Shown piece after piece: positions 33,802-35,334 of a DNA stretch of 64,000 nucleotides. Source of the stretch: an uncultured Candidatus Saccharibacteria bacterium (GTDB lineage Bacteria; Patescibacteriota; Minisyncoccia; Phycocordibacterales; CAYSCM01); the NCBI GenBank assembly GCA_964429815.1, contig CAYSCM010000001.1, forward strand, positions 128,001 to 192,000, in the 5' to 3' direction. The position numbers and the translations under genes were made by a program. The notes beneath the pieces were generated by a model, which did not search any database, was not told the DNA's origin, and worked only from the letters and a program-made list of their open reading frames with translations. How positions within the stretch are numbered: position 1 is the stretch's first letter; the number at the start of each line of letters is the position of its first letter.

Positions 33802-35334
33802 CTATGGAAACGGGTGGGGTGTCACATTCACCTCAAAGTCACTGCTATCTTTATATCCGAAAGGATATAAACGAGAAGAGCCGAGAGGTGCAAACGTTTC
33901 ATTCATATAAAGAGAAATAAGCCCGGGAACACAGATTTTTACTGAATGATAGTTGAGTTTTCGTAGAATGGGATGACTAGCTTCAAATAAAAATACTTCG
34001 TAAGCAGGACCTCTCGCCTTAAATAGTTCCAGTAACTCATCGAGTCTTTCTCGTGGGGATCGGATAGTTTTATCTTTCCTCAAAAAAGGTACGGGGGTGG
34101 CTGCGATAAAAAAAGAAAACCTGTCGAGAAGTTCTGGTTTCGCCCATAAGAGCTGGCGATTGAAAGCACCCCACTCAAGCGTAAAAGGTTCTATTGAATT
34201 CAGGGAAGGAAGTTCGTCACTTGGTTCATTAACGTTTTGCCAAATGCGCACACTGAGCGCCTCAACAAGAGCTCGTAACAACGAATCTTCGTCATCACCC
34301 CCACACCCACCACCAAGACTTACTGCAGCTCCTCTCCCAGTCCTATCTAACACTGCGGCAATATACACCGGAATACCTACAGCAGAGTCTAGCTGCATAA
34401 AATGAACTTCTAGACCTGCCTCCCTACATTCTTTAAGATGGTGGGTAATACGCGGATCGGTGAATGACTCGACACTTATTTTTTTTGGGATGCGTTTGGT
34501 AAGCCAGTACAGTAAAAATGCATCACGTTGAATAAGTTCATAAAGTCCCGATAGAATCGCCTCATCTCTAGTGAACATTCCCCCCGCCCCATTAGTGTTA
34601 GATTCACGTAACACGGGCTCACCCTCTGTTGCGCGGTAGTTAAAAAAAACCAGTTGTGCGGGAATGAGAGCGTCACGACGTTTTGTCAACGAATAACCTT
34701 CAACAAAGTTAAAAATGCTGTCCCTGGTAAAAAACCGTCTGGGAAAACGTTTTTTCTGCCATGTCGAAGCATGTGAAGCAAGGAAAGGGTCGAGGAAGTG
34801 TCTTTTCCCGCGCTCCAAATCGCTAATTGAGGCTCGGCACAGATCTTTTTCGCGATAAATTGATAGCGGGTAACGCTCGAGTAGTTCCCCGAATACCTTC
34901 GAGAGTGCTTCTTGTATATCACCAGATATCCCCCTACTGTATCCTCCGCTTGCCACTTCTGGGGAACCATCGGTTGGAGAATTTGCTGCCCAGAGCCTTA
35001 CCGCGAAAAGACTTGGCTCCCCATGTAAAACCTTATCGAAGGTAATGTTCGGTTGCTTTAAAACTCCATTTGCATATAAGTACTGGCTCAATATTTGCCA
35101 TTCTGGAGGAATAGGATATTGCTGGGTCGGAAGAATTTCTGGATAAGAAGGCAACGGGTGGCCATGTTTCAGTCGAAGTATATCGGCGAAAGAAACGGGT
35201 AAATGATATCGAAAATGTGGGCCGACTGGGTAGCGCAAAGGATAATTTACCTGGTTATAAAAAGGTAGATAGGTGCCTAGACCTCGTTGGTTTTCGGAAT
35301 TTTTTTCTAAAACCGTAATCGGTTGGTTAAGCAT
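33802..35334 (-). CDS. YcaO-domain protein (ATP-dependent amide-backbone activating enzyme)
   Basis: ALSKVFGELLERY (ExxER), SNTNGAGGMFTRDEAILSGLYELIQRDA (matches E. coli YcaO [26 protein letters not shown]), and a terminal proline-rich ...VTPHPFP motif. Start chosen at Met 35334, 2 nt after the upstream stop; the longest ORF would begin at 35460. Confidence 0.82.
   Translation of the reverse strand: MLNQPITVLEKNSENQRGLGTYLPFYNQVNYPLRYPVGPHFRYHLPVSFADILRLKHGHPLPSYPEILPTQQYPIPPEWQILSQYLYANGVLKQPNITFDKVLHGEPSLFAVRLWAANSPTDGSPEVASGGYSRGISGDIQEALSKVFGELLERYPLSIYREKDLCRASISDLERGKRHFLDPFLASHASTWQKKRFPRRFFTRDSIFNFVEGYSLTKRRDALIPAQLVFFNYRATEGEPVLRESNTNGAGGMFTRDEAILSGLYELIQRDAFLLYWLTKRIPKKISVESFTDPRITHHLKECREAGLEVHFMQLDSAVGIPVYIAAVLDRTGRGAAVSLGGGCGGDDEDSLLRALVEALSVRIWQNVNEPSDELPSLNSIEPFTLEWGAFNRQLLWAKPELLDRFSFFIAATPVPFLRKDKTIRSPRERLDELLELFKARGPAYEVFLFEASHPILRKLNYHSVKICVPGLISLYMNETFAPLGSSRLYPFGYKDSSDFEVNVTPHPFP

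Follow-up and report, generated by a model that had tools for sequence, protein, structure and literature searches.

Many backbone-modified peptide antibiotics arise through YcaO enzymes, a major route to such compounds, and these enzymes normally recognize their substrates via a few known partner proteins. We describe here a YcaO gene and its surroundings in a 64,000-nucleotide stretch of an uncultured Candidatus Saccharibacteria genome (referred to hereafter as the window; positions are counted from its first letter), in which a SagD-like YcaO-domain enzyme of 510 aa (33802..35334, minus strand) lies between the gene for a 616-aa protein that combines an AMMECR1 domain with a helical toroid (35327..37177, minus strand) and a small open reading frame (ORF) with the look of a peptide precursor. 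Genome mining has already brought this general kind of cluster to light: Sharrar et al (2020, mBio, PMC7298704) predicted a linear azol(in)e-containing peptide (LAP) cluster in one Microgenomates genome, in which YcaO is joined by a nitroreductase, a peptidase and a precursor of 84 aa, and counted 110 similar clusters in 93 other genomes of the candidate phyla radiation (CPR), with a nitroreductase beside YcaO in 89 of the 110. The clusters treated here share with that set the Parcubacteria/Microgenomates phyla, the YcaO and an adjacent precursor (~84 aa there, containing Ser and Cys), but the window cluster has no nitroreductase. Those clusters are predictions at the antiSMASH level, the genes named being YcaO, nitroreductase and peptidase, and the accessible passages of that report make no mention of AMMECR1, a missing C protein, a Gln substitution, a leader with a transmembrane (TM) helix and A-x-A-D motif, or fusions. 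The window gene most likely belongs to the same CPR LAP set or to a sister set, and its cluster is a variant of a CPR LAP-type system that is already known, if so far only by prediction.

The D proteins of thiazole/oxazole-modified microcin (TOMM) and LAP systems (SagD, BalhD and McbD, and the fused LynD, TruD and PatD) share with the window protein the YcaO fold, the ExxER and E-x-x-x-R motifs and the PxPxP tail; the likeness extends to a match over the full length of the SagD profile, to the SagB gene that adjoins most of its relatives, and to the Gly/Ser/Cys-rich core encoded next door. The window system differs in having no E1-like C protein, Ocin-ThiF-like protein or RRE (the recognition element of RiPPs, peptides that are made ribosomally and then modified post-translationally) and no SagB, in scoring under the TIGR03604 cut-off, in carrying Gln at the site of E202 of E. 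coli YcaO (hereafter Ec-YcaO; Glu in McbD, LynD and TruD), and in the TM-like helix of its leader. Stand-alone YcaOs of the bottromycin type (BotC/BotCD) likewise act in a RiPP setting that has no canonical C protein (PMC4603692), but two YcaOs and a follower peptide are found there, whereas the window family has a recurrent candidate partner of its own. Our preferred reading, to which we assign a probability of about 0.55, is that the SagD-like YcaO carries out ATP-dependent backbone activation of the adjacent peptide to give thiazolines or oxazolines, left unoxidized in this cluster, with the AMMECR1-toroid protein acting as scaffold or partner; azoline formation is the most likely chemistry.

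A SagD-like YcaO protein with a glutamine in its Mg/ATP motif

The YcaO gene is an unbroken minus-strand frame (ATG at 35334, stop at 33802), and public assemblies call the same, identical 510-aa product (P0001). Pfam YcaO (PF02624) covers residues 141–472 with E = 1.5e-47 and 162.9 bits against a cut-off of 25.7, so that the assignment does not reflect a chance resemblance; the product is a genuine YcaO-domain protein, as an initial annotation made from the DNA letters had proposed, and its AlphaFold2 (AF2) model has the YcaO fold. The top curated family is TIGR03604 (SagD-type thiazole/oxazole maturase, E = 4e-53), which aligns residues 139–510 with positions 5–377 of 377, i.e. the full profile. 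The generic TIGR00702 falls far below this score, and the McrA-thioamidation model TIGR03266 gives E = 7e-24 and 84.5 bits, under its cut-off of 365.

A PDB search with the single sequence returned, in this order, MJ1094 (4.8e-15), LynD, TruD, MusD, the M. kandleri YcaO and McbD; with a profile of 50 family members TruD, MusD and LynD lead (8e-33 to 9e-31), and the archaeal thioamide YcaOs and McbD rank below them. The AF2 model, built on a 50-sequence family alignment, is confident (predicted local distance difference test, pLDDT, 88.5; predicted template-modelling score, pTM, 0.90), with residues 1–34 disordered and all others forming one fold. Foldseek places LynD closest to this model (E = 7.5e-20, ~460 columns), followed by MusD, TruD, archaeal YcaOs, Ec-YcaO and McbD, and all 41 PDB matches at E ≤ 1e-3 are YcaO proteins. 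The N-terminal 140 residues, for which Pfam gives no match at E ≤ 1, were considered as a remnant of an RRE or E1 domain, and this was ruled out: residues 35–140 pack into the LynD-alignable fold, making the region part of the YcaO fold with no hidden RRE or E1.

Similarity to Ec-YcaO is remote. The protein had been said to track Ec-YcaO closely, which holds at the level of the motifs discussed below but not beyond them, identity being ~13–19% (13–14% by Foldseek). Neither phmmer nor profile search recovers Ec-YcaO from the window YcaO at E ≤ 1, and hhalign alone reaches it (95.9% probability, over the YcaO domain, Ec residues 38–398 of 586); past ~residue 400 the C-terminal region of Ec-YcaO, an extra domain of this ~586-aa protein of the RimO accessory type, has no counterpart in the 510-aa window protein. 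Judged by sequence, the window YcaO is much closer to TOMM-type cyclodehydratases than to Ec-YcaO. This remoteness (~13% identity, no phmmer match, an unmatched Ec C-terminal region) speaks against a housekeeping role, in which the YcaO would modify a cellular protein, either as a RimO accessory in ribosomal protein thioamidation, the role proposed for Ec-YcaO, or in the manner of the archaeal McrA-modifying enzymes, and the small ORF next door would be unrelated. Such a role is what the JGI label of many homologues implies ([quoted passage not shown]), and the authors of one CPR paper took thioamidation of the MCR type to be what CPR YcaOs do (PMC12153355), an assumption that the context in the window does not support: the gene shares a low-GC, horizontally exchanged island with genes for tailoring enzymes, its family is found together with SagB and with small peptides of hypervariable sequence, and the patchy distribution of that family is unexpected of a core gene. 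We regard a housekeeping role as very improbable. Nor does the protein fall among the TfuA-associated thioamide YcaOs, as TIGR03266 stays under its cut-off and Pfam and NCBIfam give no match to TfuA, E1-like, Ocin-ThiF or RRE families among the island proteins.

The motifs on which the initial annotation had relied can all be read in the 510-aa translation. FGELLERY supplies the ExxER motif (E150-x-x-E153-R154), the block SNTNGAGGMF...EAILSGLYELIQRDA is present, and the protein terminates ...VTPHPFP-stop, such that PxPxP corresponds to P506-H-P508-F-P510. A search of 5.8 billion proteins gave 115 YcaO homologues, ~110 of which are 445–545 aa long and 33–48% identical; those that are named belong to Parcubacteria, Moranbacteria, Woesebacteria and CPR groups like them. 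P506, P508 and P510 are kept in 109–113 of the 115, and the carboxylate of the terminal Pro has been reported to matter in both BalhD and McbD (PMC6395948). Ec-YcaO was related to the family by profile–profile alignment and by a 116-sequence alignment, with counts taken over the 115 homologues. We take the Mg/ATP residues of Ec-YcaO to be E75, E78, E199, E202, R203, R286 and E290, reportedly as described by Dunbar and colleagues in 2014; this list also draws on Ghilarov 2019 (PMC6395948).

Ec E75 and E78 align with E150 and E153 (113 of 115 each, the remainder gaps), E199 with E266, R203 with R270 and E290 with E358 (115 of 115 in each case), and R286 with R354 (R in 79 of 115), while window R154 is kept in 112 homologues, the remainder again being gaps. 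The 50-sequence family alignment shows no variation at E150, E153, R154, E266, R270 or E358. Ec E202, the second Glu of the E199-x-x-E202-R203 Mg/ATP motif, aligns instead with Gln269 (Q in 107 homologues, E in eight). Conservation of Gln269 in 107 of 115 makes it a family trait rather than damage to the window copy, and Gln could still ligate Mg via its carbonyl oxygen; in McbD, exchange of an Mg-coordinating Glu for Ala nearly abolishes activity (PMC6395948). The protein had been credited with all hallmark motifs and, by virtue of its proline tail, with catalytic competence. ExxER and PxPxP stand and the tail is conserved, but the set is incomplete at the Ec-E202 site and, with one Mg/ATP Glu replaced by Gln across the family, competence is not fully established.

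A candidate precursor peptide and the predicted chemistry

A 103-aa ORF (33440..33751, minus strand) starts 50 nt downstream of YcaO. Its layout comprises a basic N-terminus, a TM-like helix, a linker, the motif ...PNVTSA↓DTPYSQ (the arrow marking the putative cleavage point) and, directly after it as STYYGQSGYYGQSSYYSESGYGFAEGGGGGGSCEASVQGGGLECC, a Tyr/Gly/Ser-rich core with Cys/Ser/Thr residues; the sequence ends in GGGGGGSCEASVQGGGLECC, also given as SCEASVQGGGLECC. Pfam finds a weak match to a YxzE-like bacteriocin, under the cut-off. A small ORF of like architecture, often unannotated, adjoins YcaO in all 20 other loci inspected. The shared plan opens with a handful of basic residues and a ~20-residue hydrophobic helix, from which a linker that varies leads to a conserved [A/S]-x-A↓D-x-P motif (most commonly AHAD) and a hypervariable tail rich in Gly/Ser/Cys/Thr, and some tails resemble microcin B17 or heterocycloanthracin cores (for example ...GCAESCGSSCGSSCDSSCDSSC... 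in locus L040). What marks a RiPP precursor is a conserved leader joined to a core that is hypervariable, and recurrence of this architecture in 20 loci with hypervariable tails makes the 103-aa ORF a likely precursor and its peptide the likely substrate of the YcaO. The window core has a recurrent G/S-C-E/D-S context, which fits the small residue that usually precedes a cyclized Cys, as reported in studies of BalhCD substrates. Between the stop codon of YcaO and the ATG of the precursor, part of the 50-nt gap is occupied by a weak stem-loop (6 pairs, 33769–33786, minus strand) that could tune the enzyme:precursor ratio, although the scan that yielded it was, taken as a whole, no richer in such sites than shuffled sequence.

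In the mechanism that we favor, the YcaO would belong to the SagD-like, thiazole/oxazole-forming branch of TOMM/LAP proteins and would operate from a RiPP-type operon on a horizontally acquired island of a CPR genome. Its substrate would be the 103-aa peptide, whose backbone amides beside Cys/Ser residues of the C-terminal G/S-C-E-rich core it would phosphorylate, so that attack by the side-chain thiol or hydroxyl groups could yield thiazoline or oxazoline rings. The translationally coupled AMMECR1-toroid protein would take the role of the missing leader-binding partner (an E1-like C protein, an Ocin-ThiF-like protein or TfuA). A SagB/McbC-type FMN dehydrogenase is needed for azoles but not for azolines; with no SagB in the cluster, the rings would be left as azolines unless another oxidase acts on them.

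Related loci place this proposal within a wider family. Scanning the GTDB species genomes turned up 37 loci, each from Patescibacteria with the exception of two contigs of Myxococcales metagenome-assembled genomes (MAGs), and ORFs were called and clustered in 38 non-redundant related loci. A nitroreductase-fold protein occurs in 25 of the 38, and the three such proteins that were scanned all score above the cut-off of TIGR03605 (SagB peptide dehydrogenase); the neighboring nitroreductases are thus of the SagB family, and the family as a whole looks like LAP/TOMM machinery without a C protein. The closest syntenic relatives of the window cluster (L001, L008 and L009) have the gene order SagB-AMMECR1-YcaO, and two other loci with full 10-kb flanks (L022 and L026) are, like the window, AMMECR1-positive and SagB-less.

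Recurrence of SagB-less layouts with full flanks is one of several features that would suit a different backbone reaction by the same cluster on the same substrate, namely thioamidation (using free sulfide or another sulfur carrier), formation of a bottromycin-type amidine, or MusD-like ATP-dependent cleavage, for instance at A-x-A↓D. The window has no C protein, RRE partner or SagB; three rhodanese genes are found where SagB is missing in L014, L021 and L023; the thioamide YcaO MJ1094 is the top single-sequence PDB match; the leading matches by structure and by profile include MusD, a YcaO to which its PDB entry ascribes ATP-dependent peptidase activity; and stand-alone D proteins are known from bottromycin (PMC4603692). 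Set against these, the SagD profile aligns in its entirety and gives a far better match than the thioamidation profile (4e-53 versus 7e-24), the PxPxP tail is conserved, the cores abound in Cys/Ser/Thr residues that follow Gly or Ser, the search of the island genes brought up no TfuA, and two thirds of the related loci have SagB, whose presence is sensible only after azoline formation. We consider another chemistry unlikely, though deserving of a real minority share of belief, and retain azoline formation as the preferred reading.

Several observations nonetheless weigh against azoline formation with an AMMECR1-toroid partner. At 180.7 bits the YcaO remains under the curated TIGR03604 cut-off of 219.25, and Gln269 stands where Ec-YcaO, LynD, TruD, MJ1094 and McbD (the last taken from the MccB17 plasmid) all have Glu. 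Pfam, NCBIfam and AF2/Foldseek reveal no RRE or E1-like domain either in the YcaO or in any neighbor, and SagB is absent from the whole 64-kb window (tblastn, best E = 1.8), with no remnant. The window core holds just three Cys and is dominated by Tyr/Gly/Ser repeats, and a signal-anchor-like leader with an A-x-A site is unusual for the substrate of a cytoplasmic ATP-dependent enzyme. Around half of the related loci are without the AMMECR1-toroid gene, which consequently cannot be universally required.

The AMMECR1-toroid protein as a candidate YcaO partner

The most interesting element of the cluster is the AMMECR1-toroid protein, coupled to YcaO in the window, fused to it in some lineages, and lying outside the coordinates that the initial annotation covered. 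Its gene starts at ATG 37177 (the longest ORF opens at TTG 37216), and the public assembly also calls the product at 616 aa. The stop codon overlaps the start of YcaO, the two genes sharing 8 nt (35327..35334, minus strand; ATGCTTAA by direct reading of the sequence): the minus strand at the junction is ...AAA AAA C ATG CT TAA CC..., with the YcaO ATG at 35334–35332 and the upstream TAA at 35329–35327. The YcaO start had been described as lying 2 nt after the upstream stop, which is incorrect, the ATG preceding the TAA by 2 nt. The coupled translation deduced from that geometry is nevertheless plausible with an 8-nt overlap.

Pfam PF01871 (AMMECR1) matches the upstream protein with 48 bits against a cut-off of 25, alongside weak matches to SQHop_cyclase_C and TED. 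Three parts make up the AF2 model (pLDDT 72.8): an alpha/beta domain at the N-terminus, the AMMECR1 domain (residues ~130–300), and a C-terminal (alpha/alpha)6 toroid; neither an E1 nor a winged-helix fold was seen in it by AF2/Foldseek. In Foldseek comparisons the AMMECR1 domain superposes on 1zq7 (2.7e-9), 1vaj and 1wsc, and the toroid is most like 8pak (a single-domain, squalene-hopene-cyclase-like protein) and class II terpene cyclases. As modelled, the toroid resembles single-domain class II terpene-cyclase or glycoside-hydrolase-like toroids. A LanC-like cyclase was considered as its identity and rejected, matches to LanCL1 being weak (Foldseek E ~0.02–0.04) and the Cys residues for a Zn site being absent.

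Described members of the AMMECR1 family (PF01871; PH0010/1VAJ, MM0484/1ZQ7; AmmeMemoRadiSam system protein A) share with the window protein the middle domain, which passes the Pfam cut-off and superposes on the structures named above, but the window protein adds the N-terminal alpha/beta region and the C-terminal toroid, has a YcaO neighbor, and scores under the NCBIfam cut-offs for the AmmeMemoRadiSam A protein; no Memo neighbor was seen in the related loci examined. The Cys of the LRGCIG motif, reported as conserved in AMMECR1 proteins in the PH0010 structure paper, is replaced by Ser in the window domain (FRGSII). Ser occupies this position in 13 of 14 locus homologues compared, L001 having Cys (MRGCVV), and S174 of the AMMECR1-toroid protein is invariant in an 8-sequence alignment (A3) and at least 90% conserved in a second alignment (A2). 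To our knowledge, experiments have not established what the AMMECR1 domain does, be it in bacteria, archaea or humans.

The gene occurs in about 19 of the 38 related loci, concentrated in the YcaO clade of the window. Word-indexed searches for homologues gave 6 and 1 matches, such that an exhaustive search of representatives was needed: a hidden Markov model (HMM) search of 1.84 billion representatives gave 264 family clusters at E ≤ 1e-30. Among the best 150 of these 264 clusters, Pfam identifies five AMMECR1-toroid::YcaO fusions (representatives P0122, P0147, P0148, P0160 and P0255; 1039–1131 aa). Contigs were looked up from two AMMECR1-toroid homologues, and in both the gene lies directly upstream of YcaO; both also carry a nitroreductase and a ~387-aa protein, and one of the two a small ORF. 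In one related locus (L047), a radical-SAM gene is found directly upstream of the AMMECR1-toroid gene. The two loci from outside Patescibacteria (L037 and L039, binned as Myxococcales/Polyangiaceae MAGs) have YcaO and the AMMECR1-toroid gene together, reflecting either transfer outside CPR or a binning error.

We infer a partner role for the AMMECR1-toroid protein from the gene overlap, the co-occurrence, the natural fusions and the reverse look-up. The initial annotation had stated that the YcaO lacks a fused E1-like or TfuA partner; none was found fused or adjacent, but the implication that there is no partner is probably wrong in substance, given that the AMMECR1-toroid gene co-occurs with this YcaO clade and is fused to YcaO in five representatives. 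A stronger and more tentative proposal, which we hold to be possible but less likely than not, is that it constitutes a third kind of obligate YcaO partner, beside the E1-like/Ocin-ThiF proteins and TfuA, recruiting or presenting a membrane-anchored precursor to the YcaO. If this were true, the AMMECR1 domain would gain its first experimentally tractable role, and a CPR-centered RiPP class would be defined by signal-anchor-type leaders cleaved at A-x-A↓D; should the partner idea fail, the locus would be one more predicted LAP-like cluster in a CPR genome. In the literature searched, no paper joins "AMMECR1" with "YcaO", and "AMMECR1" appears in none of the top-ranked literature on RiPP, azoline, cyclodehydratase, thiazole and nitroreductase. 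The family is common in CPR, is without all known partners and is repeatedly coupled to an AMMECR1-domain protein, and the small gene set (two enzymes and a ~100-aa peptide) could be reconstituted in E. coli; it bears on AMMECR1 function, on the activity of a Gln-bearing Mg site, and on the peptides exported by ultra-small, host-dependent bacteria.

Loci without the AMMECR1-toroid gene tend to carry a fusion of a phosphoribosyltransferase-like N-terminus to a PQQ/BamB-like beta-propeller instead (~548 aa, near YcaO; 14 of 38 loci, namely L009, L013, L014, L020, L022, L024, L030–L033, L038, L040, L042 and L043). As this fusion is most frequent in the clade lacking AMMECR1-toroid, it may be an alternative accessory protein.

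The genomic island and its other genes

The whole cluster is held on a low-GC island of ~9 kb (28000..37200; GC 0.40–0.47, against 0.52–0.59 in the flanks); like the precursor-like ORF and the missing SagB, it had gone unremarked in the initial annotation. The minus-strand genes run AMMECR1-toroid, YcaO, 103-aa ORF, 378-aa protein, FAD oxidase and sulfotransferase, and look like one operon. The window island is at the same chromosomal position as the L001 cluster, between the S20/RuvA/MurE side and the side of the TPR protein described below. Flanking genes (25876–27345 and 37307–42200) are 55–72% identical between the window and L001 and the cluster genes 31–48%, which gives the appearance, from sequence comparison, of a cassette replaced by a distant xenologue at a conserved locus.

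The island stops right at the 5' end of the gene for the AMMECR1-toroid protein, an edge at which loss of SagB may have occurred. Such a loss, together with the Gln that replaces Ec-E202 in the Mg/ATP site, could be taken to mean that the window copy is a decaying or non-functional remnant, all the more as L001, L008 and L009 retain SagB-AMMECR1-YcaO. All seven island ORFs are, however, intact and full length relative to their homologues, every family-invariant residue is retained, Gln269 is the family norm (107 of 115) rather than a lesion, and other AMMECR1-positive, SagB-less loci exist; a promoter-like site directly 5' of the AMMECR1 ATG also counts against decay, although it is not above chance expectation, promoter and terminator scans giving no enrichment over shuffles. 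We judge a remnant to be improbable and continue to favor a functional azoline-forming cluster.

Downstream of the 103-aa ORF, after a gap of 12 nt, lies the gene for a conserved 378-aa protein (32291..33427, minus strand), N-terminally a TM helix and helical in its C-terminal part, for which no Pfam or NCBIfam match was obtained; a homologue is present in 21 of the 38 related loci, usually directly after the small ORF. It is followed by an FAD-linked oxidase of 579 aa (30490..32229, minus strand; FAD_binding_4) of the vanillyl-alcohol oxidase (VAO)/p-cresol methylhydroxylase, 4-phenol-oxidizing type, whose PDB relatives are 1wve/1dii (p-cresol methylhydroxylase, 3e-46) and the eugenol and vanillyl-alcohol oxidases; it is a probable tailoring enzyme. 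Tyr-rich cores with YYGQS repeats are found only in the window (at 33440–33600), L001 and L009, all three with the FAD oxidase and a PaaK-like ligase, and in L018 the FAD oxidase is present with a core without Tyr. The pattern suggests that peptidyl tyrosines may be oxidized through a quinone methide by the VAO-type oxidase.

A putative sulfotransferase (29495..30286, minus strand) matches Sulfotransfer_3 just under the cut-off (E = 1.1e-5), has no PDB relative, and is unique to the window's version of the cluster, with no homologue in the other related loci. The precursor core encoded nearby has 8 Tyr, which makes tyrosine sulfation, by analogy with RaxX/RaxST, a possibility. Convergent with the operon is a PaaK-like adenylate-forming ligase (28029..29492, plus strand) related to phenylacetate-CoA ligases and present in seven related loci. 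Just outside the island edge (25876..27345, minus strand) lie a membrane-anchored TPR protein (26623..27345; ~250 aa in the related loci, where it accompanies YcaO clusters in 20 of 38) and a secreted Cys-containing protein (25876..26586, with YcaO clusters in ~14 related loci).

Other variation was seen among the related loci. L014, L021 and L023 have no SagB and carry three tandem membrane-anchored rhodanese genes instead, accompanied by thiol-disulfide proteins of the CcdA/DsbD-like and TlpA-like kinds as well as by a methyltransferase and a HAD hydrolase; single rhodanese copies occur in L018, L019, L031 and L034. These loci hint at sulfur transfer or at extracytoplasmic Cys redox handling of an exported peptide. 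Another YcaO, which is divergent (E ~1e-20 when compared with that of the window), occurs as a second copy in L030, L031, L034 and L040, has its own SagB-like gene in L030, L031 and L040, and in L040 adjoins an AMMECR1::YcaO fusion. Long YcaO ORFs in L028, L031 and L032 were considered as further fusions and set aside, Pfam showing the YcaO domain alone and the extra length being read-through of high-GC upstream sequence. Elsewhere in the window, tandem multi-TM paralogues (MPLNAAEFRRRSEE...) lie at 42808–43449 and 43786–44416 (both minus strand), the second of which is split into overlapping ORFs (43973–44416 and 43786–44145) and is, on this sequence, probably frameshifted.

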